62,566 nt of DNA from a virus (IMGVR_UViG_3300027779_000030:1-62566); one strand, 5' to 3'. Positions 1-44,827 are shown, counted from the stretch's first letter. Program-made: numbers and translations. The notes: generated by a model from the letters alone, not told the origin.

Positions 1-981
1 ATTTGGTGTTGTATATAACGGAGAATTTGATATGACTACCCCACTAGTATCAGATATTGCCCAAGATGTTTCTCCTGGGTAAGTATCAGGTATTACAGTT
101 ATAAGTAAGTTAGTTTCTCCAAATGGGCAAGATTGTCCTGAATATTGACAAGTACCATCATCTGAATTAGCCCATGGGTTATAGTTAATTGCTGTAGAAT
201 CAATACATCCGCCAAAACAATCTCCAGTTATTATGGTTAGAGTATCAGTATATGAACCATCGGCCAACTGTCCTTGGAAGTAATATGTAGTATTAGATTG
301 TTGATTATTCCATAATAATCCAGTATTAGAAAAATTTGCGGGATAAGGATACCACGTGGAACCTAATGTATTAATATCGGATGATTTTGTATATGCTGCC
401 ACTTGGCAATTTGGATTTGGCATATTAGACCAGTGATAATGTATTTTATTATTATTCCCATCGCAATACGTTTCTACCCATAGAGTATCGAGTCCTGCAC
501 ATGGTGGATATATACATAAACTATCAACTCCCCATGATGAGTTTGGATCATAGTTTGTAGCTATTGGATTCATACATCCTCCGTAAGGAGGAGCACATGG
601 TGCAATAGTTAAAGATTCAATATAACTATATCCATAATTACCTTCAGCGTAAGCTAAAGTATCTTCACATATATTTGAAAGTAGTACATGTCCAATAACT
701 CCAGCCCAGCTTAATCCATCTCCATATGAATCGTTTACAGTAAGAGTATAATTTCCTGAAACTAGAGAATCAATAAATATTGTTGTATCTGATAAACCAT
801 TATAATAAGGTCCTCCACTTGCAATAACTACAGTATTTGCATCTTGTAAAGTCCAAGTGCATTCTGATGCATACCCATCGAAATCAAATTCGAGGTGTGC
901 CCAAGTATCAGGGTTCTGTGCAAAACTATTAGATATGCACAAGACCATGGCAGTAATAGTTAGTAATATGTTCTTTAACAT
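1..981 (-). CDS. Secreted Bacteroidota-like protein with Cys-containing GC(T/M/I)D-type repeats; partial, runs off the left window edge; not in the ORF track
   Basis: ATG at 981, open frame to position 1. Translation begins MLKNILLTITAMVLCISNSFAQ (Sec signal peptide, A-Q cleavage). It contains GCMNPIATNYDP...C and GCIDSTAINYNPWANSDDGTCQY repeats and the motifs YTLTVNDSYGDG and PDTYPGETSW, which are typical of flavobacterial T9SS cargo proteins. Confidence 0.75.
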   Translation of the reverse strand, partial: MLKNILLTITAMVLCISNSFAQNPDTWAHLEFDFDGYASECTWTLQDANTVVIASGGPYYNGLSDTTIFIDSLVSGNYTLTVNDSYGDGLSWAGVIGHVLLSNICEDTLAYAEGNYGYSYIESLTIAPCAPPYGGCMNPIATNYDPNSSWGVDSLCIYPPCAGLDTLWVETYCDGNNNKIHYHWSNMPNPNCQVAAYTKSSDINTLGSTWYPYPANFSNTGLLWNNQQSNTTYYFQGQLADGSYTDTLTIITGDCFGGCIDSTAINYNPWANSDDGTCQYSGQSCPFGETNLLITVIPDTYPGETSWAISDTSGVVISNSPLYTTPN

Positions 982-1009
982 ATGTAAAAAGTTTTTTTAA
1001 TCGTAGCCA

Positions 1010-3445
1010 TTAAGCTGATGTTGTTTTTATATCTAATCGCTTTTCAATCTTTCTAGCTGATGTGATTTGTTTAGCTGCATCCCTTCCCCATCCTGCATTA
1101 GCTCTTGCACACATTTGTACAGCCTCATCTGATGTCCTAAATGAGTTGGGATCTATACTTCTACTCTTTAACCTATTCAATAGGAAAAGAACTGCTACTT
1201 TTGCTGCTAGATTTATGTCATTAAGTTTATCTGGATTAGATACAATATCCACTCCAGTTTCTTTTGCATATTTCTTATACGATTGCTTAAATGTAACTTG
1301 GTTAAATCCTCTTCCTCTATATTTATATCCGTCTCCAGGTAATACTGGGTCGTCAGATTTATTATTCCAGGTGTGGTATCCATTTTTAACTGATATGTGA
1401 CCGTATATTGTGTCATAAAAAGCAACATCATCTTTCTTTAATACATCTACTTCTGCTACGGTTAAATGTTTAAGTGTGCCTTTAAAAACAGACTTTAGGT
1501 ATGAACCTCCACTTCTGCTATATGAATATTCATTTTTAGGAACGAATGAGGTTTCTTTTCCAATAACTGATAAGAAACCAATTATTGTATTAGGGTTAGT
1601 TATTCCATGTTGTTTTGCTACTGTTTCTAATACCGCTATATTTTTAGCGGCAGCTCCCGTATAATTATGAGTTATGCTTGATTCTCCCGTTCTAACAATA
1701 TAGTTATTACTATCGGTATATGCCGATGTTCCATACCAGTGATTAAAGTAGTTTACAATAATCTTAGCCCATGCTTTTTCTGTAACATCTTGCTCAGATC
1801 CCGCTTCTTTATATAAAAATACCTTATTATTTTCTAGTTTGCAGACTCCTAAGTCTTGCCCTCTTCTATTAGATACGCTATATTCAATTTTATCTTTTCT
1901 ATTACCTTTTCTAAAGTATAAGACTCTTTTTTCTTCCCTATCCCATATTTCAAATTTCTTTGCTCCATATCTGGCGGAACTTTTCTTCTTTGATGTAGAT
2001 TTAGTTCTACCGGTCAAAACTTCTGCTGTTTCCGAATTAACCTCTCCGGTCACAGTTAGGTTGTTATCTTTTTGGAATTTTTTGATTTGTCCTCTAGTTT
2101 CTTTTCCAATTTTTCCATCCACTCCATATTTTGGAAGAGGATATCCTTTTTGAACCAGTGCTAATTGTATTTCTTTGACTTCATCGGTGTTTGACCCAAA
2201 TGATTCTGTTTTTACAGGTTTAACTTTATTAGTGTTTGTAATCTTTCCTTCTGTTACATACTTTTTATAAAATTGGGATGGAAATTCAAAATGTCCCTGC
2301 TCAATTCTTTCTACTATTTGTTTTGATTCCTCTAATTGTCGGCTTAGGCTTTCCCATCTACCATCATTGTAGAATTTAGCCATTCCCGGGCTTCCATATG
2401 TAAATACTACGGTTCCCTCTTGAGAAGGAAAATTAGATAGACTAAAATTCTTAGGTATAGATGGATCTATTAATCCGATTTTATCTACGTTACATCTATT
2501 TGCAACCTTAAATACTAGAAGTGCTCCTAGTGAGAATCCAGTTAAGTATATTTCCCCGACTCCCCTATCTCTTGCTTTTTTAATATAACTTACTATTGAT
2601 GATGTTGACGCTGCTTTCTTAAGAGCTCCACTTGTATCTGAATCAAAGGTAACAACCTCCCATGTTTTTTGTATTTCACTAGGAATATGTTTCTTTAGCT
2701 TTTCTCCAGAATAATTTTTTCCTCCAATAGCAATTAATATTCCCTTTACTTTATTACCTTCTGGGTTGGTTGATTCTTCTTCAGTAAAATCAGTCGAGGC
2801 ATTTGCTACTTTAGTTGCAATAGCATCTTCAAATTCTTTAGTCCTACTTCCTTTAAAGTAATCAGTAAATCCGATTAGGGAACTTTGAGATAATTTTCTA
2901 TTATGTATTCCAACCCTATGCCCTTCTCCAGATTTTTCATCATTTGTATTTCCCTCTATTGTCTTAAATGTTTTACTACTAACGTCAACTGCAGTTACTA
3001 TACCAGTATGTCCCTTACCACTCCCAGGTCTAGACATTATAAAAACTTGACCTGGCTTAACCAACGATGGGTTATTTCTAGCTGCGTCTATGTTTATTTT
3101 AACATCAGCATCTGATCTATCCCAGTGCCTAAGCACCCCAGCTGTTTGCGGAAGGGTATTAGCAATGTTTAGTGCACTACATAAATCATTGTGCATTGTA
3201 TATACAAATGCCATACACCAAGGGTATCCAGTATTTGGTAATGCTTTTCCGCTTTTATTATTATTAAGACCGGACGTCTTAACGTATCTATCAACATCAG
3301 TACCATGGTTTTTACCACGAGGTACCTCTTTTACTGGATAGTTTTTAACTAGTATTTCAGCAAATTTTTCTCCTGCTTCAGTAGGATCTTCAATAGATAG
3401 GGCATTTTCATGCAGCCAATTTTCAAAACTTGTAAATCTTTTCAT
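1010..3445 (-). CDS. Multidomain peptidoglycan hydrolase: CHAP + alpha/beta-hydrolase + PG-binding + GH19 lysozyme/chitinase
   Basis: CHAP motifs PWCMAFV...GHTGIV...TIEGNT; nucleophile elbow GFSLG with IDPS and a distal GH; PG-binding motif VKEIQLAL...GVDGKIGKET...FQ; GH19 motifs KET...NE and DGYKYRGRGFNQVT...NPD. Confidence 0.85.
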   Translation of the reverse strand: MKRFTSFENWLHENALSIEDPTEAGEKFAEILVKNYPVKEVPRGKNHGTDVDRYVKTSGLNNNKSGKALPNTGYPWCMAFVYTMHNDLCSALNIANTLPQTAGVLRHWDRSDADVKINIDAARNNPSLVKPGQVFIMSRPGSGKGHTGIVTAVDVSSKTFKTIEGNTNDEKSGEGHRVGIHNRKLSQSSLIGFTDYFKGSRTKEFEDAIATKVANASTDFTEEESTNPEGNKVKGILIAIGGKNYSGEKLKKHIPSEIQKTWEVVTFDSDTSGALKKAASTSSIVSYIKKARDRGVGEIYLTGFSLGALLVFKVANRCNVDKIGLIDPSIPKNFSLSNFPSQEGTVVFTYGSPGMAKFYNDGRWESLSRQLEESKQIVERIEQGHFEFPSQFYKKYVTEGKITNTNKVKPVKTESFGSNTDEVKEIQLALVQKGYPLPKYGVDGKIGKETRGQIKKFQKDNNLTVTGEVNSETAEVLTGRTKSTSKKKSSARYGAKKFEIWDREEKRVLYFRKGNRKDKIEYSVSNRRGQDLGVCKLENNKVFLYKEAGSEQDVTEKAWAKIIVNYFNHWYGTSAYTDSNNYIVRTGESSITHNYTGAAAKNIAVLETVAKQHGITNPNTIIGFLSVIGKETSFVPKNEYSYSRSGGSYLKSVFKGTLKHLTVAEVDVLKKDDVAFYDTIYGHISVKNGYHTWNNKSDDPVLPGDGYKYRGRGFNQVTFKQSYKKYAKETGVDIVSNPDKLNDINLAAKVAVLFLLNRLKSRSIDPNSFRTSDEAVQMCARANAGWGRDAAKQITSARKIEKRLDIKTTSA

Positions 3446-3456
3446 ATCTTAATTAT

Positions 3457-3951
3457 TTATCTTACTCGATCTAGTATAATTAACTGGGATCGATTGATTA
3501 TTTCATACGCTTTATCGACTGGTACAAATCCTGCCCAATCAATTTCTTCTATTTGAATATCTTCTTTATTAACGGTTAGTTCTGACATGCCTAACTCAGA
3601 TAAATCATCTACTCTATAGATATAATAATATAACTGCCAAGACACTTCTCCCTTTCTATTATAGGAGTTGGCAACGTTTACCTCTTTATCTAAAACTCTA
3701 GGATTTATAGATATTCCGGTTTCTTCTTTTACTTCTCGTACAGCAGCTTCTAGGTAATCCTCTCCATTTTCAATTCCACCCTTAGGAATACCATATGCAT
3801 TTCTTTCTTTATTTGAGTCGGATGCATGTACTAATAATATATTATTTTTATATAGTATACATACGCCTGCTGCTTTTTTAATCCCTCCACTCTTAGATTC
3901 AGTTATCCTTTTTAACTTATTTCTACTATTATATCGCTTAACTCTTATCAT
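3457..3951 (-). CDS. NUDIX hydrolase
   Basis: Intact Nudix box GGIENGEDYLEAAVREVKEETGI; N-terminal AAGVCI...ILLV strand. Confidence 0.9.
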   Translation of the reverse strand: MIRVKRYNSRNKLKRITESKSGGIKKAAGVCILYKNNILLVHASDSNKERNAYGIPKGGIENGEDYLEAAVREVKEETGISINPRVLDKEVNVANSYNRKGEVSWQLYYYIYRVDDLSELGMSELTVNKEDIQIEEIDWAGFVPVDKAYEIINRSQLIILDRVR

Positions 3952-4120
3952 ATCTATTTTTATATTTTGCCTTACTTAATTGTTCTCTTCTACGTTGGGA
4001 TTTTTTCTTGAACGTTCTTCTTTCTCTAAGTTCTCTAATCGTTCCTATTTTATCCACTTTTTGTCTATATGCCTTAAGTACGTAATCTATCCTCTTACCT
4101 TTAGTTTTAATAATTATCAT
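3938..4120 (-). CDS. rpsU: Phage-encoded 30S ribosomal protein bS21
   Basis: 60 aa, very basic: MIII...IDYVLKAYRQKVDKIGTIRELRERRTFKKKSQRRREQLSKAKY. Matches the bS21 pattern (ID.ALKR.K.K..K.G...ELR.R..F.KPS..RR) with the Bacteroidia-type C-terminal KAxY. Confidence 0.9.
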   Translation of the reverse strand: MIIIKTKGKRIDYVLKAYRQKVDKIGTIRELRERRTFKKKSQRRREQLSKAKYKNRYDKS

Positions 4121-4977
4121 TTACTTAAATATTTTGAATAATCAATGGTGTGCTTTGATTTAAATAACAATGCATCATATTGTTTATCTTTAAAGTAAGG
4201 AGCTACGTTTTCTTTTATTATTTTATGTTTTACCCAATTTGGAAAATTAGATTGATAAAAATCAGAGTATGCAGATTCATACATTTCTACTGCTTGATAT
4301 GGATTAATATTAGATACTTCCTCTATTTTATCTAGGTATATTTTTCCGTCGCTTGATTCTATTAATCGTATAGAATAAAAATCTAGGTCATATTTAGAAT
4401 ATATGTCCTTTGATATAGATTTTAATTCATTTAAGTAGTCAAATCTTTTTAACTTGCAATCTATTCTATATTTGTTTATTATTTCCTCTAAACAAATAGG
4501 AGAATCTTTAAATACTATTGCTTTGAATCTTGTATTTGGAATAATATCTTCTGAGAATGTTTTATATATTGAATTTGATTTTTTAAGCTTTCCTATTGTT
4601 TTATACCTATTCTCAGATGTTTCATTTTTTGCGACTACTGGAAATTTAAGCTTTTTTATATTTTTTATATCACTTACTCTCTTAGGAATATAGTCATTTT
4701 CAAAAAGATCTTCATATACCGATTCACTATTTGGAATAGAAGAAAGACCATATGTAAACACGTCATTCTCATTAATTATTGAATAATCTAGTGAGAATGA
4801 GTTACACATTATTACTGGTCTACTGTTATCTAATTCATTAAATTCGAAAACATTAGAAATATTATCAAAGTATGCGTATTCTAGTTTTTCATTGGATGCC
4901 ATAATTACCCTATTTAAATAGGAATTCGGATCTTTTGAAATAAGCTTAGAATATTCACCAAACGTCTTAAGCACCAT
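4117..4977 (-). CDS. ATP-grasp (RimK-like) fold protein, catalytic motifs apparently degenerate
   Basis: YIPK...LKFPVVAK and ELKSISKDIY..YDLDFYSIRLIESSDGKIYL resemble ATP-grasp segments. The usual D and E-x-N residues are replaced (SIRL, LDKIEE). Confidence 0.5.
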   Translation of the reverse strand: MVLKTFGEYSKLISKDPNSYLNRVIMASNEKLEYAYFDNISNVFEFNELDNSRPVIMCNSFSLDYSIINENDVFTYGLSSIPNSESVYEDLFENDYIPKRVSDIKNIKKLKFPVVAKNETSENRYKTIGKLKKSNSIYKTFSEDIIPNTRFKAIVFKDSPICLEEIINKYRIDCKLKRFDYLNELKSISKDIYSKYDLDFYSIRLIESSDGKIYLDKIEEVSNINPYQAVEMYESAYSDFYQSNFPNWVKHKIIKENVAPYFKDKQYDALLFKSKHTIDYSKYLSK

Positions 4978-4996
4978 ATAATTGTTTCATTTTTAT

Positions 4997-5004
4997 TATT
5001 TATA
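4997..5004 (-). promoter_or_regulatory. T4-type late promoter TATAAATA driving the ATP-grasp/bS21/NUDIX operon
   Basis: Exact T4 gp55 late consensus about 20 nt upstream of ATG 4977, followed by ATAAAA. Confidence 0.65.
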
Positions 5005-5008
5005 GTAA

Positions 5009-5016
5009 GATAAATA
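5009..5016 (+). promoter_or_regulatory. Late-promoter motif GATAAATA, divergent from the 4997-5004 site
   Basis: GATAAATAAAATAAAA about 18 nt upstream of ATG 5035; the same motif occurs upstream of many structural genes. Confidence 0.55.
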
Positions 5017-5034
5017 AAATAAAATTGACGAGTA

Positions 5035-6141
5035 ATGATCAAATCATTTAATTCATGGGACGATGTTAATGAAGCTAAGATTAGAGGAAAGCAGATATTA
5101 AGGTCCCCGAGTGGAAAAAGACAAAAGATTGCATTTAAAGTCCAAGCGGATAATAAATTTTTAATTAAAATCATTCATATGAATGATATTATTGTGGATG
5201 GAAAAATGACATTGGAAGGAGCTAAAGCTATAACTAATTTTATTAATAGTCAACTTGCCTTAGTAAATACTATCGGAAAAATAGATTCTACTTTTTTTAG
5301 TACTAAGTTTATTATATACACAGTAAAGAAAGACACTAATCGACAAGAAAAAGTTCAATTTACAATAGTATCAGATTCAGAACACCCAGAAATTCCAGCA
5401 GATACTCAATTTATATCTAGTGAAGATGCTGCTGCTCTTTTAGTAGCATATAATGCAACTAATACAGACGCAGTTGATTCAGGATTAAATGATGTTGTTG
5501 TTGATAATGAAGAAACAGTAGTAGTTGATGACACTGATGATGAACCGGAAATTGTAGAAGATGAAGGATCTGAAGAAGATGCAGAAGGATCTGAAGAAAT
5601 TGACGAAGAACTTTGGGTAAATGGATATAAGTTTATGTATACAATGAGAACTAACATGAAGACATACCTAATGAAGTTTGTAGAAGGTGGAGCAATTGAT
5701 GCTAACGTTAAAGGAGAAGATTCTCCAAATGGAGCAGTTTCTTGGGAAGATCCAAAAATTATGTGGTACACTGATTTAGATAATGCAGATGCAGGAACTA
5801 CATATGCTAAATGGGTGGATGAAGGAGCTCCTTTATATATTGATCAAGAAATTACTCATAAAATGGATGTAGACTTCTTTACTAAAATGTTTACCGATGA
5901 AGAATATAGAGATTCAATACTTAAAAAATATAATGATGAGTATGGTGATTCTGAAGTAAATTTAGAGAATATTAAAAATATGTTATATTATAAAGATAAT
6001 ACTAGGATTTTTCCATCTACTGTTAAAGGTAACGTAACAACTGGTGATGAGGTTGTAGCTACTACAGGAAAAGAAGTAGACATCGCTGCTGCTAAAGAAT
6101 ATGAAGATAACATAGTAAAAACTAAAAGAAAAACTTATTAA
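5035..6141 (+). CDS. Hypothetical acidic protein, possible internal head protein
   Basis: 368-aa ORF; N-terminus MIKSFNSWDDVNE resembles a capsid-targeting sequence; central D/E-rich linker with a 15-bp direct repeat (5563-5577, 5584-5598). Confidence 0.6.
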   Translation: MIKSFNSWDDVNEAKIRGKQILRSPSGKRQKIAFKVQADNKFLIKIIHMNDIIVDGKMTLEGAKAITNFINSQLALVNTIGKIDSTFFSTKFIIYTVKKDTNRQEKVQFTIVSDSEHPEIPADTQFISSEDAAALLVAYNATNTDAVDSGLNDVVVDNEETVVVDDTDDEPEIVEDEGSEEDAEGSEEIDEELWVNGYKFMYTMRTNMKTYLMKFVEGGAIDANVKGEDSPNGAVSWEDPKIMWYTDLDNADAGTTYAKWVDEGAPLYIDQEITHKMDVDFFTKMFTDEEYRDSILKKYNDEYGDSEVNLENIKNMLYYKDNTRIFPSTVKGNVTTGDEVVATTGKEVDIAAAKEYEDNIVKTKRKTY

Positions 6142-6157
6142 AATAAATATAAAACAA

Positions 6158-7783
6158 ATGTATAACCCTAACTTTTATAGAAATTATGGAACATATTTAG
6201 TAGAACAATCTACTGTTGTTTCTGATGAACTTGATCCTAGACTAAAGGGATACTTAGAAAACGACTCTTTCTTAGAGCACATTATGCCTGAATTAGAGAA
6301 TACTCCTGATGGGGAAACTAAGGAAATAGTAATAGTCGATAAAAATGAATTTGGAATATTAGATGAGGATAAGATATATCTAAAAGTTGATAAGTCTAAT
6401 CCGCAAGCTCCTATTTTTAGCATGTGGATATTAAATGACGAATATATTTATGGTGGTATTGATTTTGATTTACTTTCTACTATTGTACATAATGCTGCTG
6501 ATGAAGGATCTGTTATTGGTTATGTTGGAAATCTAATAGGCTCTATATTTGGAGCTGGAGATGCTGGGGATTCTGGGACAGATGAAGATACAATAGTTGC
6601 AGCAAGTGCTGCCCTTCATCAACTTGCTCATGAGAAAAGCATAGATGCAATGTTATACTTTGATAAGTTAGAAGAAATATACGCTGGAAAATATGGAGAA
6701 AGTTTAAAAGATATGCTAGAGACTGAATTTTCTGGAAGAGCAGAAGTTTCTGCATTACAAGCATTTAGGAGAGAAATTACTCCTTCAGTTTTAAGAGGAA
6801 TGAATCCTTTAACTATATTAGGAGATATTGCATTAACTGTAGTTACTCTTGGAGGATCTTCTGCATTTATGGCAGGATTAAGAGGAGCAACAGGAGGTGT
6901 TCAAGCCGCCAAAGGAATGAAAGGTATAAAGGGAGCAACTGTATTAGCCAGAGGAAGTGCTGCTATTGGATCAGGAGTAGGTGCTATATCTAGAGTAACT
7001 GGAATGGCTAAGCTATTTCAGAAAATGGGGCCAGCCGTTAGATTAAGAACTCTAACATCAGTAGGCGTTAAAACTGGTCATCCAATAAAGGTAATAAGCA
7101 CTAAGGGAGTAACCAGCATGAAGACTTTAGATCTATCAACAGATGTTACTAAATATTTAAAAGGCGCACAAAAGGCAACATTGGGTAAAAATCAATTAGC
7201 CTCGGCTCAATATGTTACTGTAATATCAAAAGGTGGAACGAAAAATGCCATGTTGTGGTCTGGTGTATTTGCTGGATCTGCTCCAAAAACACAAATCGCT
7301 ATTGCTACTGCAGGTAAACTAGCTGCTCCAGCAACAATTGCAGCAATGCACTCAGAAGCAGGAGGAGGAGAAGCTGCACCAGAAGCAAGCTTAGGAGCTA
7401 AAGGAGCAGAAGCTATGGGATGGTACGATACTCAAACTGCAGATCCTAGATCATTTATTGAAGCTCAAAAAGGAGCAGCAGCTACAGGTTTAGCTGAAAT
7501 AATATTTGATCTAAAGAAAGGTAGTGGTCTTTTTGGAAATACAACAAACCAGGAAGAATTACTAATGGCTTTAACTATTTTAAGTTTAGATGGAAAAGGA
7601 GCTAAAGAAGTTCAAGTAGCATATAAGAAACTTGATGGTGAAATGAACGTATACGCAGTACTAGATGATGAACTTGGGGGAGATATGTCAATGTTTGCAA
7701 AAGCACATTGGACTGCATGTACAGGAGAAGGAGCAGAGTATGCAGCTGGAATCAAGAATATTAGAGCAAGAATTAAAAAATAA
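6158..7783 (+). CDS. Annexin-repeat-containing protein with a central Gly/Ala-rich hydrophobic region
   Basis: Repeat 1: GDSGTDEDTIV...LEEIYAGKYGESLKDMLETEFSG. Repeat 2: GLFGNTTNQEEL...EVQVAYKKLDGEMNVYAVLDDELGG. Both fit the annexin pattern GxGTDE...Y...YG.SL...I..E.SG. Confidence 0.7.
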   Translation: MYNPNFYRNYGTYLVEQSTVVSDELDPRLKGYLENDSFLEHIMPELENTPDGETKEIVIVDKNEFGILDEDKIYLKVDKSNPQAPIFSMWILNDEYIYGGIDFDLLSTIVHNAADEGSVIGYVGNLIGSIFGAGDAGDSGTDEDTIVAASAALHQLAHEKSIDAMLYFDKLEEIYAGKYGESLKDMLETEFSGRAEVSALQAFRREITPSVLRGMNPLTILGDIALTVVTLGGSSAFMAGLRGATGGVQAAKGMKGIKGATVLARGSAAIGSGVGAISRVTGMAKLFQKMGPAVRLRTLTSVGVKTGHPIKVISTKGVTSMKTLDLSTDVTKYLKGAQKATLGKNQLASAQYVTVISKGGTKNAMLWSGVFAGSAPKTQIAIATAGKLAAPATIAAMHSEAGGGEAAPEASLGAKGAEAMGWYDTQTADPRSFIEAQKGAAATGLAEIIFDLKKGSGLFGNTTNQEELLMALTILSLDGKGAKEVQVAYKKLDGEMNVYAVLDDELGGDMSMFAKAHWTACTGEGAEYAAGIKNIRARIKK

Positions 7784-7808
7784 GTATTATTAAATACGTT
7801 TATATTTT

Positions 7809-7837
7809 AAAAGAGAGCAATTAGCTCTCTTTTTTTT
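7809..7837. terminator. Intrinsic, probably bidirectional, terminator between convergent genes
   Basis: AAAAGAGAGC-AATTA-GCTCTCTTTT perfect 10-bp stem followed by a T tract on +; lies between ORF 6158-7783(+) and the end of ORF 7821-8468(-). Confidence 0.8.
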
Positions 7838-8468
7838 GTATTCTAGATTTGATCTTATCTAAAATCTTTAATTTTTTATCGATTGATGGCCGTGATATTT
7901 CTCCATCTTTAGTATGGTAATATATGGATTTTTTACCATATGATGTTAAATACTCATCTTTTATATCAGATTCACATCTATCAAATATATCCTTTCTTGA
8001 AATTACAAAACATCCGTCTGGTATTTTAGAATACATTTTACTTTCATATATTGGATCATTGTACATTGTATTATCAATGTAGATGACAGTAGCATCTGAT
8101 ATATCAGAGTCAAAGAAAGATTCATTCAATATTGATATATTAGAATAGTCTAAATCTGGATAATCTATTTTAATATCATCTATGAATAAACATCTTTCCT
8201 TACTATATTCTATGCCCACTGACTTAAATACTTTATATTTTAATCCAATATGTATGGGTATTTTTCCAGTTCCACTTCCTAGATCATAGAATATTGTAGT
8301 ACTATTAAAGTAATCTTTAAATTTTTCAACTATTGCATCTATCGCATCAAAATTGCTTTCTCCGTATACGAGATGTTTTACTTCTAATCCTACTGTTTGA
8401 TTTGAATACTTTCCTCTAGATTTTATGGCGTGTATTTCCTTAAGGATTACATCTAACGGGTTGTTCAT
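7821..8468 (-). CDS. DOT1-like class I SAM-dependent (protein lysine) methyltransferase
   Basis: VYGE, FYDLGSGTGK, GIEYS and DATVIYIDN match the DOT1 family pattern (YGE / DLGSGxG / GxE / AxVIFxNN). Confidence 0.7.
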   Translation of the reverse strand: MNNPLDVILKEIHAIKSRGKYSNQTVGLEVKHLVYGESNFDAIDAIVEKFKDYFNSTTIFYDLGSGTGKIPIHIGLKYKVFKSVGIEYSKERCLFIDDIKIDYPDLDYSNISILNESFFDSDISDATVIYIDNTMYNDPIYESKMYSKIPDGCFVISRKDIFDRCESDIKDEYLTSYGKKSIYYHTKDGEISRPSIDKKLKILDKIKSRIQKKES

Positions 8469-10372
8469 TAGAATGGCTTAATATGCTTTAGTGTATTATT
8501 TTCAGCAATAGACTCAAATAGTCCCGAGCTTGTTCCTATATCCATTCTATCTACTCTTTCTTTTATTGTAGGATCTTCCGCTATAATATCCTTATAGAAT
8601 TTTTGAACGTCGTCTGGAATCTTATCTTTTGTTCCAGAAGTATAGTATACAACGTCCCCAATTCCAGGTAAACCAAATCGTTCGGCCTGAAGCCGTTGAT
8701 TCTCTTTAAGAACTTCTTGTCCTGGTGAGTTTGTTATTGCATCTACATATGGAACATCATATGATTGATTAGGATTTTCTTCAAGATTCTTATTCATTAT
8801 ATCTTGCATAGTGGTAGATACTGCAACGTTTCCAATAGCTTCTAATTCACTGTCGCTTAGATCCATTCCTTGCATATTCGCAAATAACTTATATATTTGT
8901 TTTCCGATAAACATAGGGATTTGTTTGGTTACAATAAATCCGCCAATCACTTTGCTTCCTACTCTATTTACGAGACCCATTGCTTCACCAGCTGCTTTGT
9001 TTATTCCCGCTATAGATCGATACAGGTCTACTATATGATCTGAATTCTTTGCCATTAGCTCAGTTGTCTCTTTTCCAATTATTCCTCCCCATCTTTTTGC
9101 TATATGATCTGAATTTTTTATGAACGCGGCTGGAAGTTCAGCCACTACTTTACCTGATACATCTTTAACTAGTAATCCAGCAGTTCCCTGCGTTACCTCT
9201 TTTCCTATATTTTTAGAAATAGTACCTGCAACAATTTCAGTTCCTGGTTTTGATGCAGCTTTAAAGAAATCATCTAAACTATGAGTAGCTATTTTTGCAC
9301 TTGCTTTTGTAAAGTCGTCAGAAAACTTAAGAGTTTTAGTTACATATCCGTCAAATAATTTAGCAATAGAGTTAAAGAATTTTTGAAGAGGTTTTCCTAT
9401 AAAAGGAACCCAGCTTACAAGTTTTCCTATAAAATCTCTAAAGAATCTACTGATAAATCCCCTTAATCCAGGAAGTACTTTTTTACTAGATTTTGCCATA
9501 TAATCTAAGGCCTTTATACTATCAGGGGATGCCTTTGCTAAAAGTTTCACTGCGTCATCAGATACCTTTGTAGATTTTCCCATTACGGTAGCAATCTTTA
9601 TGGCTTCTGCTCCAGTCTTACTTCCTGCTTTAAATATTCCTGCAAAAATGTTTCCTGCGAATGGTAGCATTGCTGCTACAAATGATATTGTTGCTAATAC
9701 CCATTTTCCTCTTACCATGTATATAATACCGTTTAAAACATCGGCGATCATACCAACTGGTCCAAAGAAATCACCAATTAAACCAACTACATCTAATACT
9801 AGGTGAAGTATTCCAATAGCACTTCCATTCTCGGTGATTGCATTAAATAACTTCTTTAGTAATCCCCACCATCCTCCTTCGTGAGTAAGTATTCCAGAAG
9901 TATCTGTAGTACTTTTAATATTACCAAGTAAATCATCCACATCATTTGGACCTCTTTTTAATGAGGCTGCATTATCTATAGATGATGTTATTTGTTCTAA
10001 TATTGCTTCTTTATTTTTACCGTTTAATGATTTAAATCCTTCGAAAAGTTCAGACATTGCACTTTTTAATTCACCCATATCGGATTCATTAATGTGAGAT
10101 TCAGCCATATCAAATAATAGATTCTTACTCTCAGTCAATCCTTTATAATAATCTTGAGATGTTGATTTATTTCTTTTTAATATTAAATCTAGTTCTAAAT
10201 TAAATTTTAGATCCTCAGGTATTGATTCTTCTGCTCTATTTAAAAGCTCTGCTTCCTTAGATATATTTTCTAATGAAAATAAATTTTCAAATATTTCTTC
10301 TGTTCCTTCAAATATATTATTTAAGTGGCCACAAAAGATTTCTGGAGTTTGATATGCTGCAATGTGCTTCAT
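8468..10372 (-). CDS. Pre-toxin-TG-like hydrophobic-helix protein, possible ejected/internal head protein
   Basis: LHLVLDVVGLIGDFFGPVGMIADVLNGIIYMVRGKWVLATISFVAAMLPFAG resembles PT-TG. The N-terminal about 130 aa are rich in (I/L/V)xE sites (IFE, LTES, INES, LFE, ILE). The protein starts MKHI and ends LKHIKPF. Confidence 0.6.
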   Translation of the reverse strand: MKHIAAYQTPEIFCGHLNNIFEGTEEIFENLFSLENISKEAELLNRAEESIPEDLKFNLELDLILKRNKSTSQDYYKGLTESKNLLFDMAESHINESDMGELKSAMSELFEGFKSLNGKNKEAILEQITSSIDNAASLKRGPNDVDDLLGNIKSTTDTSGILTHEGGWWGLLKKLFNAITENGSAIGILHLVLDVVGLIGDFFGPVGMIADVLNGIIYMVRGKWVLATISFVAAMLPFAGNIFAGIFKAGSKTGAEAIKIATVMGKSTKVSDDAVKLLAKASPDSIKALDYMAKSSKKVLPGLRGFISRFFRDFIGKLVSWVPFIGKPLQKFFNSIAKLFDGYVTKTLKFSDDFTKASAKIATHSLDDFFKAASKPGTEIVAGTISKNIGKEVTQGTAGLLVKDVSGKVVAELPAAFIKNSDHIAKRWGGIIGKETTELMAKNSDHIVDLYRSIAGINKAAGEAMGLVNRVGSKVIGGFIVTKQIPMFIGKQIYKLFANMQGMDLSDSELEAIGNVAVSTTMQDIMNKNLEENPNQSYDVPYVDAITNSPGQEVLKENQRLQAERFGLPGIGDVVYYTSGTKDKIPDDVQKFYKDIIAEDPTIKERVDRMDIGTSSGLFESIAENNTLKHIKPF

Positions 10373-10393
10373 GCTTAACTATCTATTTTTTAT

Positions 10394-10401
10394 TATTTAT
10401 T
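10394..10401 (-). promoter_or_regulatory. Late-promoter motif AATAAATA
   Basis: AATAAATAATAAAAAA about 21 nt upstream of ATG 10372. Confidence 0.5.
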
Positions 10402-10484: not shown

Positions 10485-11492
10485 TTACTTAATAGAATTA
10501 AATATCCTCTGTAGTTCTTCTTTTTGCCTATTTAAAAGATCCTTTGAGTTAGAATCATATGCAGATATTAATTTTTTAATATCTTCTTTATTTTTTACAT
10601 ATAATAAATCTTTTAAGATTGGGTCCTCTATTAAAGTACGATTAGGATCATATTCTATTTGTATTGCGGCTAAGCAATTTGAAGCAAGAGTTTCATAAAA
10701 CCTATATGTTGTAACATTATCAAGGTGTTCCTCATCTCCAGTTATTAGTGAGACTTTAACGGTGTCCAGCTTATTCATTAAATCATCATGTTTTAATTTC
10801 TTAATAAATTCAGCTGGAACTTTATTAGATTTATATCCGATTAATAGATTATTAGTATCTTCTGGAAAATATTTTCTTAATTGATTCTCTCTAAAGGAAC
10901 CTCTCTTATCTCCATAATATACTAAATCCCATTCTTTTTCTTGAGGTAAATCTAATTGTTCTTTGTCTGAAAACCTATGTTTAAAAATATATGTAAACCA
11001 ATCTACCCTTTTCCAATTCTTAGGAGTATATCCTAAGAATTTATCTATTTTTGTTCCTGGGAATAGATAAATTGCCTCCTCCAATATCTTAGACCAACTT
11101 TCTATTGAGTCTGTGCATATATTAAATCTATTTGATATGATCTCTGCATAATTTAAAGGGGGTATCCTAGGGTCATTTACTAGCATATATATCTTACCTT
11201 CATATTTTGCTAAATCGTTACATATCTTTTCACAATGGTCTCCAAGAACTCCTCCAAAAAAATTAGGAGTACTTAGTTGCAATATTACTGCCCCATATTC
11301 TGAAAAATCTGTACTTTCGTAATCTATATAAAAATCTAAATCTTTAGTATTTCTATTCTTTTTACCAACGACGTCGACAGTTGCTCCCTTTTCTTCCATT
11401 AATTTCTTAAAGAACATCGCTTCTAGTCCTCTATGATTTTTATTATTATATGTAAGATTAGCAAGTACTGAAGTTATAGCTACTTTCTTCAT
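10485..11492 (-). CDS. bgt: DNA beta-glucosyltransferase (T4 BGT family, GT-B fold)
   Basis: Collinear with T4 BGT motifs: PNFFGG (INFFGG), LAKYEGKIYMLVNDPRIP (MAKYKSKIYYLFTDIRLP), DLVYYGDKRGSFRE (DVIYGGSFRSGQRE), LITGDEEHLDNVTTYRFYETLAS (LIIGDKNYNDNFITLRVWETMAS). Confidence 0.88.
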   Translation of the reverse strand: MKKVAITSVLANLTYNNKNHRGLEAMFFKKLMEEKGATVDVVGKKNRNTKDLDFYIDYESTDFSEYGAVILQLSTPNFFGGVLGDHCEKICNDLAKYEGKIYMLVNDPRIPPLNYAEIISNRFNICTDSIESWSKILEEAIYLFPGTKIDKFLGYTPKNWKRVDWFTYIFKHRFSDKEQLDLPQEKEWDLVYYGDKRGSFRENQLRKYFPEDTNNLLIGYKSNKVPAEFIKKLKHDDLMNKLDTVKVSLITGDEEHLDNVTTYRFYETLASNCLAAIQIEYDPNRTLIEDPILKDLLYVKNKEDIKKLISAYDSNSKDLLNRQKEELQRIFNSIK

Positions 11493-11804: not shown

Positions 11805-12641
11805 TTAAACAGCGGCAAGCTTATTATCTTTTTCTTTTAGTAATTCCCAAGCTCTTCCTAACCTAGTTAAACCAATTCCTCCACCAAATCTAGGGAAGAA
11901 ATCATTATCAAAAAACTCATTTAGCTCTGATTCAACTCTTTCTTTACCAAATAATTCAAATAGTTTATCTGCATATGTTCCTTCCATTATATTATAGAAA
12001 AAATGTTTCATTTCTTTAACGTTAGAGCTGCGTTCTGCCGTGCCAAATGTTTCTTGACCATATAAAATGATGTCGCATTTATTAAATTTACCATCTCCAA
12101 TATATTTCATATTCCAAAAAGGAGATGTTCTAATGGGGAATGTTTCTAATGAGACAGAATGACCTAGTTCCTTCCACATTCGTGATTCATGTTCATCTTC
12201 TAATATTTCTACTCCACCATATTCTTTGCATGTTTCGTCATAGTCTATTTGAGTAGGCGAGTCAAATCCTAGATACTCCAATAATTCAATATTAAGTTTT
12301 TTAAGGTCGGTAAAATTTCCTTTAGATTCAAATTCAAACATTGGAAATATTTTCTCATGTCTTCCGGGGATAGGATCCTGCTCATTTCTATAAGAAGTGG
12401 ATACACAAAAGCATCCTTCCCATTCTGGATTTTTTAATAGCTCATATTCTAACCACATTTGTCCAGTCTGTGGTAATGGCCATACTATCCCATCATATGT
12501 AAAGGTTGAAACTGAATGAGGATTTTCACATGCAGCAAGAATAGATTTTCTTGATTGTGAGGGTACTTCTACAAAATTTTTAGTCAAAAAAAAATCCCTC
12601 AGCTTCTGAGAGATTTCGTGATAAGTTTTCGTTTTTTTCAT
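11805..12641 (-). CDS. Class IIb aminoacyl-tRNA synthetase catalytic-domain-only protein (AsnRS/AspRS/EpmA-like); likely start ATG 12641
   Basis: Motif 1 LRDFFLTKNFVEV; LPQTGQMWLE; motif 2 STSYRNE...RH..IFPMFEFE; motif 3 RFGGGIGLTRL. No N-terminal OB-fold anticodon-binding domain. Confidence 0.8.
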   Translation of the reverse strand: MKKTKTYHEISQKLRDFFLTKNFVEVPSQSRKSILAACENPHSVSTFTYDGIVWPLPQTGQMWLEYELLKNPEWEGCFCVSTSYRNEQDPIPGRHEKIFPMFEFESKGNFTDLKKLNIELLEYLGFDSPTQIDYDETCKEYGGVEILEDEHESRMWKELGHSVSLETFPIRTSPFWNMKYIGDGKFNKCDIILYGQETFGTAERSSNVKEMKHFFYNIMEGTYADKLFELFGKERVESELNEFFDNDFFPRFGGGIGLTRLGRAWELLKEKDNKLAAV

Positions 12642-12738
12642 TTTTTTTTTAGTTGTGTTAAACACAATTAAAATTAATGATTCGTAAAATATTTTATGTC
12701 CTTCTATAAATACAATGGATCAATAAAAACTACAAGTT

Positions 12739-20071: not shown

Positions 20072-20091
20072 TAATAGTTAGATTATTTTTA

Positions 20092-20313
20092 TTATTTATT
20101 TGTTTTTAGGTGAGAAGGTAATCCTACTTTGGTTTGTGAATTAGGGGCATTAAGATTCGCCTGTTCTCTTATCTTTTTATTTTCTTCCTCAATATCCTTA
20201 TTGATTATATTTAAAAGAAGAGAATATTCTAAATATTCCATATTATATAAAGTATCGAAGCTTTGGTTAAGCTTCACCGCCATTCGAGCATTAAGCTCAA
20301 ATAAGTTCATCAA
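20092..20313 (-). CDS. gp51-like baseplate hub/tail assembly chaperone (small); its frame is open upstream to 20376
   Basis: NLFELNARMAVKLNQSFDTLYNMEYLEYSLLL..I...IEEENK resembles T4-like gp51 small proteins; directly overlaps the gp26-like gene. Confidence 0.6.
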   Translation of the reverse strand: MMNLFELNARMAVKLNQSFDTLYNMEYLEYSLLLNIINKDIEEENKKIREQANLNAPNSQTKVGLPSHLKTNK

Positions 20314-24222: not shown

Positions 24223-24349
24223 TTTTAACCGATTATTTTTGTTAAAATTTAACTTATTTTGTTTATATTATTTATACTTCACTTGCAGTAAGTGTTTTTA
24301 ATAGGGAATGCAGCAAAATATCAAAATATAGCCTATTTTAACAATTTTA

Positions 24350-30503: not shown

Positions 30504-30571
30504 TATTTATATTATTTATACTGCGAATATTTATTTTAGATTATTAAAACGTTAGTTAATTTAGATAAATA
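30504..30571. promoter_or_regulatory. Divergent late promoters: two tandem TATAAATA on - (30504-30511, 30513-30520) and GATAAATA on + (30564-30571)
   Basis: Motifs read directly in the intergenic gap between 30491(-) and 30595(+). Confidence 0.6.
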
Positions 30572-41754: not shown

Positions 41755-41776
41755 TTAGTAGCTTTATTTTTTTTAT

Positions 41777-42562
41777 TTATTCAGTTGGTGGAAAATCAGG
41801 ATCTATCCATGCATCACTAATTGTTGTTCCACTATCTTGTATTTTTTTAGTTATACCAAACTGGTTTATTACGTTTCCTTTATACATAGTTGCACTCTCG
41901 TCAAAGCTAGGAAAATATGTTTCCATAGATATTGAAAAAGAAGTATTTACATAAGTATCATCATTATAATTAAATGCATATTTCTTATCATTACTCATTG
42001 ATTCTGGGAATTTTATTTGTCCTGGAATTCTTATTCCTCTATATTGGAAATATACTACTTCATTTTTATAATAAAAATCAAATATTTTTTCAGTTATTTT
42101 AAATGTTTTATTTAAATTATCTGTTATAATTTTTATATCGAAATTTAAATCCATAGGTAAACTATATAATCTAGAAGAAAATGCTTTCATTTCCTTTTGA
42201 TCATTTTTATTTCTTTGCTCTTGAGTAAAGGTTCCCCTTACAAACTTATTAGTGATATCTGATGACTTTATAGAAAACGTATTTAAAGTTACAATACCTC
42301 TCGGCACAACCTCATAATTTCCTTCTGCAAGTGATGGGTATTTACAATCATTCGGTAAATCTACAAAAAAATCTTGCATAAATCCTTGATTTCCTGCAAA
42401 GTTATAGAAGAAAGGTACTTCATGTTTTTCTACTTTGTCTCCACGAACTAAGTCTATTATAATTCTACGGTTTAAAACGTCTAAGACAGATAAGGTAGCA
42501 TTTCTTAGAAAAATGTCTTGAACGTTACCGTTCATTATATTTTCGTGATTTGATTTTTGCAT
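41777..42562 (-). CDS. Tail sheath stabiliser/terminator (T4 gp15-like)
   Basis: EVPFFY...VPRG...LPMDLNFDIKI...TSFSISMETY pattern. Confidence 0.7.
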   Translation of the reverse strand: MQKSNHENIMNGNVQDIFLRNATLSVLDVLNRRIIIDLVRGDKVEKHEVPFFYNFAGNQGFMQDFFVDLPNDCKYPSLAEGNYEVVPRGIVTLNTFSIKSSDITNKFVRGTFTQEQRNKNDQKEMKAFSSRLYSLPMDLNFDIKIITDNLNKTFKITEKIFDFYYKNEVVYFQYRGIRIPGQIKFPESMSNDKKYAFNYNDDTYVNTSFSISMETYFPSFDESATMYKGNVINQFGITKKIQDSGTTISDAWIDPDFPPTE

Positions 42563-42574
42563 AATATATTTTTA

Positions 42575-44725: not shown

Positions 44726-44750
44726 TAATAATATGTTTTATAGTTTTTAT

Positions 44751-44806
44751 TATTTATTCGTTGCATTTTTATTAAACTGAATGACTTTAGTTCGGTAAAA
44801 TAAATA
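44751..44806. promoter_or_regulatory. Divergent late promoters AATAAATA (44751-44758 on -, 44799-44806 on +)
   Basis: Both copies are followed by ATAAAAA and lie 21-25 nt upstream of the respective ATGs. Confidence 0.55.
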
Positions 44807-44827
44807 ATAAAAAGATAGATTGAGCAA

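Follow-up and report, generated by a model that had tools for sequence, protein, structure and literature searches.

In a 62.6-kb virus fragment (IMGVR_UViG_3300027779_000030:1-62566; hereafter the window, meaning the whole stretch analysed), three overlapping minus-strand genes at 3457-4977 encode an ATP-grasp-fold protein of 286 amino acids (aa), here called p286, the ribosomal protein bS21 and a Nudix hydrolase, and are followed by the gene of a large lysin. Our preferred reading is that these genes belong to a late unit around the lysin and the Nudix hydrolase, the latter resembling NudE of phage T4, that the unit has acquired a pseudo-ligase (p286) and bS21, and that a tag which probably targets the capsid is present on most of its products. 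We put the chances of this reading, taken as a whole, at about even.

Gene order around a conserved core

The trio runs in the order p286 (4117..4977), bS21 (60 aa; 3938..4120) and Nudix (164 aa; 3457..3951), all on the minus strand, with bS21 overlapping both of its neighbours. The initial annotation had described three overlapping genes, and the sequence confirms each junction: p286 and bS21 share an ATGA at 4117-4120, and bS21 and Nudix overlap by 14 nucleotides (nt) at 3938-3951. The lysin gene (1010..3445, minus strand) begins 11 nt past the Nudix stop codon and encodes an 811-aa multidomain peptidoglycan hydrolase with matches to CHAP, PG_binding_1 and GH19-like domains. Because the lysin gene starts so close, and because no minus-strand terminator-like site was found within 1-8600, the unit is larger than three genes; the genes from 4977 to 3457 would be its first three cistrons, the lysin being part of the same late unit. 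Candidate sigma-70-type promoters inside the unit were rejected, promoter-like sites being no commoner than in shuffled sequences.

Nine related viral loci (L001-L009) encode p286. The Nudix gene lies downstream of it in all eight loci that are long enough (L006 is cut), and bS21 stands between the two in four of these eight (L001, L007 and the pair L008 and L009, which do not differ over the locus). In two others, L002 and L004, p286 adjoins Nudix directly, and in L003 and L005 two unrelated small open reading frames (ORFs) without Pfam assignment intervene. Junctions are tight, with overlaps of 1-4 nt between the ATP-grasp gene and bS21, except for a 1-nt gap in L001, and of 4-23 nt between bS21 and Nudix. 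A second survey, anchored on the Nudix gene and covering a sample of 80 out of 178 loci, included sixteen loci with close orthologues. The full trio was found in seven of these (L067, L070, L072, L077, L079, L082 and L083), bS21 and Nudix without p286 in two (L069 and L073, despite 2.7 kb of upstream sequence) and Nudix alone in three (L068, L075 and L080); the remaining four are too short to tell the arrangement. The lysin follows the Nudix gene in relatives. As Nudix is downstream of p286 in 8/8 loci, and as the Nudix-lysin pair is also present in T4, we regard Nudix followed by lysin as the conserved core. Judged by gene order, p286 and bS21 are optional additions directly upstream of Nudix, translationally coupled where present, which a core echoing the T4 nudE-e pair would have gained.

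These arrangements bear on two other explanations of the locus. The first is that of the initial annotation, in which the trio acts jointly, late in infection, on the platform of the host 30S subunit and on the mRNA pool: p286 would bind bS6 (or bS18/bS21), the phage bS21 would swap in, and the Nudix enzyme would process RNA 5′ ends. The order p286-bS21-Nudix with its overlaps, present in the window, in 4/8 p286-anchored loci and in 7/12 informative sampled Nudix loci, speaks for such a module. The neighbourhood survey upheld the conserved synteny in so far as order and tight junctions recur and Nudix is constant, but not the trio as a joint unit, p286 and bS21 each being optional. Every sub-combination of the three genes is found among relatives, and the trio is thus no obligate machine of three parts.

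The second explanation is plain accretion, in which unrelated accessory genes have been packed together by compaction. The Nudix protein would then be a NudE-like housekeeping enzyme acting on dinucleotide polyphosphates, ADP-ribose or damaged nucleotides, bS21 an independent insertion, p286 a drifting ligase remnant, and the N-terminal motif described below a codon or mRNA constraint. Accessory genes at these loci do come and go independently, and T4, with a homologous NudE, has the same Nudix-lysozyme order. We consider accretion unlikely but well worth keeping in view, chiefly for reasons that concern p286 and the N-terminal motif.

p286 as a pseudo-ligase

An AlphaFold2 (AF2) model of p286, built from a 23-sequence alignment (predicted local distance difference test, pLDDT, 82.4; predicted template modelling score, pTM, 0.83), leaves residues 1-17 outside the fold and shows a C-terminal helical extension from about residue 243. 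All top Foldseek matches are ATP-grasp proteins, with DdlB, PurK and ArgX first, and the same is true of the top matches among the 60 chains that VIA returned at Z>=8 (RimK 11.8, LysX/ArgX 11.8/11.6, synapsin 11.3, macrocyclase 11.1). Direct family searches with p286 gave nothing useful in Pfam (no match at E<=1), PHROGs, NCBIfam or a PDB profile search, and a protein-level search of the phage collection returned one distant match only, LR756500. A profile of the p286 family, searched against 1.84 billion representatives, recovered 92 proteins, 19 of them at E<=1e-30. ATP-grasp families of Pfam are matched at E<=0.01 by 59 of the 62 distant relatives scanned; Dala_Dala_lig_C, R2K_2, YheCD and ATPgrasp_ST predominate, and RimK matches are weaker. 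About 10 of the 62 reach the PF18299 cut-off of 26.2 bits, and p286 itself matches neither PF18299 nor PF14243. Aligned by hhalign with 24 relatives of the active type, the p286 family gives 99.85% probability (E=1.2e-30, 281 columns). The initial annotation had staked its proposal on an ATP-grasp fold, and this is the fold that the AF2 model, Foldseek, VIA and hhalign all return.

The label ‘RimK-like’ fares less well as a family assignment. RimK heads the VIA fold matches, a point in favour of joint action on the ribosome, but it lies within 1 Z unit of LysX/ArgX, synapsin and macrocyclases and is inseparable from other ATP-grasp folds. p286 has no PF08443 match, and its distant relatives match RimK no better than the Ddl, YheCD, ST or R2K models. 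Action on the ribosome also draws some support from the partial match of active relatives to R2K.2, in that host proteins, possibly translation factors, are the predicted targets of modification by phage R2K ATP-grasp ligases in sections of two papers (PMC4431377, Burroughs et al. 2015; PMC7824862, Iyer et al. 2021).

The active relatives conserve an FPIIAKP strand, a G-x-S-G-I-G loop, an E-x-R pair, a further Arg, an Asp and an E-x-N. The catalytic columns, invariant or nearly so in the 24 active relatives, were mapped onto p286 with hhalign and with mafft-profile, two independent mappings that agree. The glycine-rich loop (columns G141, G143 and I144 of the active relatives) is deleted in 23/23 members of the p286 family. 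E177 corresponds to R150 in the window p286 and to Lys or Arg in every family member; the Mg-binding Asp, D249, corresponds to R204; E262 corresponds to K217, Glu never occurring in the family at this place; N264 corresponds to E219; and K101 and R193 are both lost. The window p286 retains the hinge Glu143 and the ATP-binding Lys of the FPxxAK strand (K117); in 12 of the 23 family members this Lys is replaced by Tyr, Ser or Phe. With its glycine-rich loop gone and none of the three metal-ligand positions kept, p286 is in our interpretation a pseudo-ligase. The initial annotation had pointed to a lost ExN motif and to a non-catalytic protein; both points stand, and the loop deletion, the missing Mg-binding Asp and the charge-reversed ligand columns extend them. 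On this evidence, p286 retains the scaffold, though not the catalysis, of a family of ATP-grasp ligases from phages (R2K.2/Ddl-like by Pfam), and most likely works by binding something, not by ligating.

It is conceivable that p286 has kept enzymatic activity through a rebuilt active site and cooperates with the Nudix protein on a nucleotide-linked small molecule. Such a site could draw on Lys117 and Glu143 of the window p286 and on D199, E207, S208 and N225, which are invariant in the family. We judge this very improbable: the glycine-rich loop is absent throughout, the three metal-ligand columns are variable or charge-reversed, and the replacement of Lys117 in about half of the family is a variability at ATP-contacting positions unexpected of an enzyme. 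A search for an active paralogue of p286 in the window and five related contigs, all of them fragments, found none. A predicted p286-Nudix complex scored 0.00 in both runs, which were made without controls and are not evidence either way.

Loss of catalysis has not been accompanied by drift. The p286 family has 37 invariant columns across 23 sequences with identity down to 39%, and is thus under constraint; together with the 19 representatives at E<=1e-30, this argues against the ligase remnant that accretion would require. The contexts of the active ATP-grasp relatives, by comparison, fit accretion: at 52 loci these relatives stand in other, nucleotide-metabolism surroundings (with thymidylate synthase, dCMP deaminase, ribonucleotide reductase, sigma factor and alanine-dehydrogenase-like genes). 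Neither Nudix nor S21 was found among 89 neighbours scanned at 26 of the 52 loci, and phmmer searches with the window Nudix and bS21 gave no match in the ORFs of all 52.

Two side observations concern these families. In L005 (3992-5161) the p286 ORF is longer by about 100 residues; this added part is basic and matches DUF5754 weakly (E=1.4e-5, below the cut-off), and either a fusion or a lost stop codon could account for it. In L022, L027, L028, L033 and L035 (approximately 4370-5440) an active ATP-grasp relative overlaps a downstream gene of about 350 aa by 4 nt (in L033 there is a 3-nt gap); the product of that gene is alanine-dehydrogenase/PNT-like in the three loci scanned, which suggests a distinct two-enzyme module in other large phages.

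The Nudix hydrolase and bS21

The third gene encodes a Nudix enzyme, as first annotated, and an intact one. It matches PF00293 with E=3.4e-16 (59.9 bits against a cut-off of 21.1) and has a complete Nudix box (GX5EX7REUXEEXGU), in which G58, E64, R72, E76, E77 and G79 are invariant columns, E73 being almost so. The structural model (pLDDT 84.5) has a disordered 21-residue N-terminal extension (residues 1-21 below 50), and its fold matches are flat, with DR1025, E. coli RppH, YmfB, Ap4A (diadenosine tetraphosphate) hydrolases, Dcp2 and MutT1 all between E 2e-8 and 4e-7. No NCBIfam equivalog cut-off was reached by the window Nudix, the best RppH model scoring 33.7 bits against a required 116. 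The closest characterised relative found is T4 NudE (BLASTP E=2e-9, 33% identity over 96 aa); the substrates given for NudE in the T4 record are FAD, diadenosine polyphosphates, ADP-ribose and NADH. We predict an active hydrolase with an intact box, related to T4 NudE and placed in the structural neighbourhood of ApnA hydrolases, RppH and decapping enzymes. Given the flat fold matches, the missed equivalog cut-offs and the similarity to NudE, the earlier term ‘RppH-type’ names only one among several substrate possibilities; structurally, the enzyme is no closer to RppH than to Ap4A hydrolases, DR1025 or YmfB.

The middle gene is a bS21 gene, as had been proposed: both PF01165 (31.4 bits against a cut-off of 27) and TIGR00030 (34 against 28.95) are matched, over residues 7-56 of 60. 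Tyr53 is invariant in 12 phage copies and aligns with the terminal Tyr of Bacteroidota S21, whose conserved C-terminal aromatic residue is given as Tyr54 for F. johnsoniae in sections of PMC9723584. By these features the window bS21 is of the Bacteroidota type. Where cellular Bacteroidota S21 has F-E-K-P-S, the window bS21 has F-K-K-K-S; related phage copies differ among themselves in whether they keep the Pro. No bS21 was found elsewhere in the five contigs that lack it at this locus, all fragments of 5-51% completeness. Such a phage bS21 might replace host bS21 on the 30S subunit.

For joint action of the trio on the 30S platform, the choice of host is favourable: in Bacteroidota, the probable host phylum, bS21 helps to sequester the anti-Shine-Dalgarno sequence, according to part of the text of PMC9723584. 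E. coli RppH stands near the top of the Nudix fold matches, a further point for it, but the RppH equivalog cut-offs were missed. The bS21 genes of three huge phages (LR745206, LR756502 and LR756504) have neither a Nudix nor an ATP-grasp neighbour within 4 kb. Because two of the three parts are optional and no specific RimK or RppH signal is present, the proposal of a ribosome-platform remodelling module is weakened to a conjecture, and we think it improbable.

An upstream element shared with tail and baseplate genes

The element TATAAATA, which the initial annotation had placed ahead of the trio, is present at 4997-5004 (minus strand), 19 nt ahead of the p286 ATG. TATAAATA alone was rejected as a significant signal: its 17 copies in the window compare with 23.3 +/- 4.7 in shuffled sequences (17 or more copies in 95/100 shuffles), and its first T is kept in 0/9 related loci.

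Overlapping it is a 14-mer, ATAAATAATAAAAA, at 4990-5003 (the two together spanning 4990..5004, minus strand), which ends 12 nt ahead of the p286 ATG and acts, in our reading, as a promoter or 5′-leader motif. The core of this 14-mer, with a T-rich stretch before it, lies upstream of the p286 homologue in all nine related loci, where the proteins are only 40-46% identical. With at most two mismatches, ATAAATAATAAAAA has 31 copies in the window against 15.3 +/- 4.1 expected. Allowing at most one mismatch leaves nine (4990-5003, 10387-10400, 20086-20099, 24262-24275, 30506-30519, 41767-41780, 42569-42582, 44744-44757 and 44800-44813), every one of them 6-39 nt upstream of a gene start on the same strand, in a window whose intergenic share is only 4.6% by our gene list. 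Eight of the nine are 6-18 nt from the start codon, six of them at 12-14 nt. The genes behind these copies belong mostly to the tail and baseplate region and include a baseplate-wedge gene and a gp15-like tail gene; the idea that the trio stands behind a shared upstream motif is therefore borne out, with ATAAATAATAAAAA as the shared element. We read ATAAATAATAAAAA as a T4-late-like promoter or leader element that would drive or lead the late unit. Its nearly fixed distance from the start codon makes a leader or translation signal possible as well as a promoter.

A shared N-terminal peptide and the packaging proposal

Proteins of unrelated families encoded in the block at 1010-7783, and at loci L001-L009 and L067-L083, share an N-terminal pattern: aromatic-x-x-aromatic, often followed by [ILV]-x-E and then Ser or Ala. 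As well as the genes described above, the block contains two plus-strand genes, divergently transcribed p368 (5035..6141; 368 aa), a homologue of which is kept in 9/9 p286 loci, and p541 (6158..7783; 541 aa). Both products are of unknown fold, and the Protein Atlas held low-confidence models only and no usable relatives for them.

N-terminal motifs were counted across 18 related loci. An aromatic pair occurs in the first 14 residues of 67/129 N-termini, compared with 110/1481 internal windows, and the strict seven-residue pattern in 15/129 compared with 3/1481. By family, the pair is present in 15/18 Nudix proteins (11 with a nearby [LIV]-x-E), 11/13 lysins (10), 11/12 p368 proteins (10), 9/11 members of a small 104-161-aa family (8), 3/9 p541 proteins (3) and 13/13 p286 proteins. 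Neither element was found in bS21 (0/10), an acidic protein family (0/15), a ligase-like family (0/4) or a kinase-like family (0/3). Within the window, three of six block genes have the aromatic pair, compared with 3/36 others. An aromatic pair also lies in residues 1-17 of the window p286; the lysin begins with the full aromatic-x-x-aromatic-L-x-E motif, p368 with F-x-x-W followed by V-N-E, and p541 has Y-x-x-Y-L-x-E at residues 10-16. The N-terminal segments of p286 and Nudix are of low confidence or disordered in both models.

The T4 internal proteins IPII and IPIII begin with the same aromatic-x-x-aromatic-I/L-x-E pattern (T4 record). Sections of PMC9026906 describe the first 10 residues of IPIII as a capsid-targeting sequence, assigning targeting to residues 4 and 7 and the direction of processing to residues 8 and 10, and place cleavage by gp21 after L/I-x-E. 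Since the N-terminal pattern found here matches both the T4 capsid-targeting sequence and a prohead-protease site, we propose that the block encodes head-internal, ejected proteins, and the tagged 811-aa multidomain cell-wall hydrolase fits this picture. By analogy with T4, the tagged Nudix, pseudo-ligase, lysin and at least two to three families of unknown function would be loaded late into the prohead, trimmed, and ejected into the next host to act at the onset of infection. bS21 has no such tag and would probably be active in the producing cell. The portions of the literature covered, which were not exhaustive, contain no description of a capsid-targeting-like tag in these phages.

An origin of the motif in codon usage or mRNA structure, as accretion would have it, sits poorly with its composition and distribution: it includes Trp, has fixed spacing, is confined to the block within the window, and is absent from the bS21, acidic, ligase-like and kinase-like families at the same loci.

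Several points nevertheless weigh against our reading of the locus. The window's own Nudix is without the aromatic pair, having only Y7 and an I-T-E at 16-18, and the [LIV]-x-E site occurs in only 1/13 p286 members, though all have the pair. A search of the window and five related contigs (22-54% complete) for a T4-type prohead protease (PF03420) gave no match, and the control genomes gave none either. In an AT-rich phage an abundance of K, N, F and I at N-termini is to be expected, and part of the enrichment could come from an mRNA-level effect; family members are also related, and the motif counts are not independent events. Proportions from the Nudix-anchored survey are those of a sample. 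In other relatives the Nudix gene stands beside ligase-like and nucleotide-kinase-like genes (by our reading of the sequences), where a plain nucleotide-pool role would fit, as accretion supposes. The invariance of D199, E207 and N225 leaves a small chance of a rebuilt active site in p286.

Carried to its full extent, the proposal of packaged and ejected proteins would make the T4-like tag a mark, in a lineage of jumbo Bacteroidota phages, of at least five unrelated families that are packaged in the head, trimmed by a protease and ejected: Nudix, the pseudo-ligase, the giant lysin and two or three unknowns. The Nudix and the dead ligase might then be at work as soon as the next infection begins, acting for instance on host nucleotide signals or RNA 5′ ends, or holding a host component sequestered; the active ATP-grasp relatives of other big phages might be injected modifiers of host proteins, like T4 Alt; and bS21 might perhaps be co-delivered or belong to the same axis of translation takeover. 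We advance this extended version tentatively, and expect it to prove wrong somewhat more readily than right.

The phage, its probable host and neighbouring genes

The window is estimated to be 24% complete (CheckV). Related contigs of 127-137 kb have completeness estimates of 51-54%, which puts the full genome at probably around 250 kb. Among the window's products are a large terminase (TerL), a T4 gp6-like baseplate wedge protein, a gp15-like protein and tail-fibre proteins, as well as a beta-glucosyltransferase-like protein and a sigma-factor-like protein. The nearest TerL matches in the phage collection are huge metagenomic phages and phages of Flavobacterium, Tenacibaculum and Prevotella (Lak); a DNA-level search of the same collection gave no match. 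The phage is probably a large myophage of about 250 kb with T4-like morphogenesis genes and a Bacteroidota host.

An exact-peptide search for cellular relatives of the window bS21 found none, and a pattern taken from an alignment of related phage bS21 copies succeeded, yielding 110 cellular relatives, of which 80 are listed. All 80 listed loci are Bacteroidota by record title; carriers include Cryptobacteroides and Lishizhenia, which we take to be Bacteroidota. The window bS21 is 43-54% identical to the listed cellular S21 in 66/80 loci. As the listed relatives are all Bacteroidota, at this level of identity, a Bacteroidota host appears likely.

On the right, the block is bounded by a terminator-like hairpin (7809..7833, plus strand) between the convergent genes for p541 and a 215-aa protein. 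Notable Pfam matches come from three neighbouring genes (7821-8468, 10485-11492 and 11805-12665), whose products are a DOT1-like methyltransferase (Pfam E=4e-13), a protein like the T4 beta-glucosyltransferase and, with 286 aa only, a catalytic core resembling class II aminoacyl-tRNA synthetases (PF00152 E=5e-7, phrog_29758 E=2e-91). On the left, after the lysin gene, a minus-strand gene at 1-981 runs off the window edge; its product has a signal-peptide-like start and Cys/Gly/Tyr-rich repeats, and by its sequence looks like a secreted or surface accessory protein. In relatives, the lysin is followed by a strongly acidic protein of 155-195 aa, rich in [IV]-x-E (L001 7166-7696 and homologues, 15 loci), which may be scaffold-like or core-like. 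It has no Pfam match and is not among the genes found in the window, perhaps because the left end of the window falls short of it.

Implications

Phage bS21 is widespread, and this lineage gives it a defined, recurrent context of pseudo-ligase, Nudix and lysin. In the literature covered, which was not exhaustive, a degenerate ATP-grasp family linked to bS21 and Nudix is nowhere described. A dead ATP-grasp family indicates that phages retain the ligase scaffold after catalysis has been lost, which points to a binding or decoy role; the target of p286, once found, would also reveal the substrate of the active phage ligases. If the tag is a capsid-targeting signal, a simple sequence rule would predict the ejected proteins of uncultured large Bacteroidota phages, and the Nudix and pseudo-ligase would shift from ‘late’ functions to functions of takeover in the first minute. 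If none of these readings holds, the locus would be an ordinary accessory-gene cluster around a T4 NudE-like hydrolase.

Comparison with known systems

Of the characterised ATP-grasp proteins, the bS6 glutamate ligase RimK (PDB 4iwx) is the best VIA match to p286 (Z 11.8; root-mean-square deviation 4.6 A over 217 aligned residues). Unlike RimK, p286 lacks a PF08443 match and the catalytic residues, and its similarity to RimK is tied with that to many other ATP-grasp proteins. Dcp2, the partner of the ATP-grasp protein Pby1, is a Nudix enzyme. Pby1 itself (PDB 6y3p, whose title describes an interaction with the mRNA decapping enzyme) has an ATP-grasp fold like that of p286 (Z 10.1), as one among the 60 chains at Z>=8, and no specific relationship to p286 is shown.

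R2K.2-like and Ddl-like phage ligases (PF18299, PF07478) are closer. They are likewise phage-encoded, have full-length homology to p286 and the same fold, and share with it an N-terminal aromatic pair and a C-terminal helix of the Y..IYEDFY type. p286 differs from them in having no glycine-rich loop, no E-x-R pair and no D/E-x-N metal ligands, in reaching no Pfam model with its sequence, and in its linkage to Nudix and bS21, which the active relatives do not have.

The published bS21 of Bacteroidota phages (PMC9723584; huge phages LR745206, LR756502 and LR756504) belongs to the same family as the window bS21 and has the conserved C-terminal Tyr. According to sections of that paper (Chen et al. 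2022), these phages too have Bacteroidota as predicted hosts and carry bS21 near structural genes, and late expression is proposed for them; in the published clades the gene lies on the reverse strand among TerL, major capsid protein and portal genes, with another, unrelated conserved neighbour, bS21_CN. A term search of the paper's main text found neither Nudix nor ATP-grasp mentioned, and in the huge phages bS21 has other neighbours.

The most extensive likeness is to T4. The tag of IPII and IPIII resembles the N-termini of the block in having an aromatic residue, two further residues, a second aromatic, I/L, x and Glu, then Ala/Ser, all within the first 10-16 residues; here, by comparison, it is a sequence pattern alone, its spacing to the Glu differs between families, and p286 is mostly without the Glu site. 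Unlike the window Nudix, T4 NudE (gene e.1) has no N-terminal extension; the window lysin, with several domains in 811 aa, is also different, and genes for an ATP-grasp protein or bS21 are missing from the T4 nudE-e-ipIII-ipII cluster. That cluster, in the order nudE, e (lysozyme), ipIII and ipII on one strand of the T4 record (5417-7491), nonetheless has the same layout as the window: a Nudix gene and then a cell-wall hydrolase gene, beside genes with capsid-targeting N-termini.

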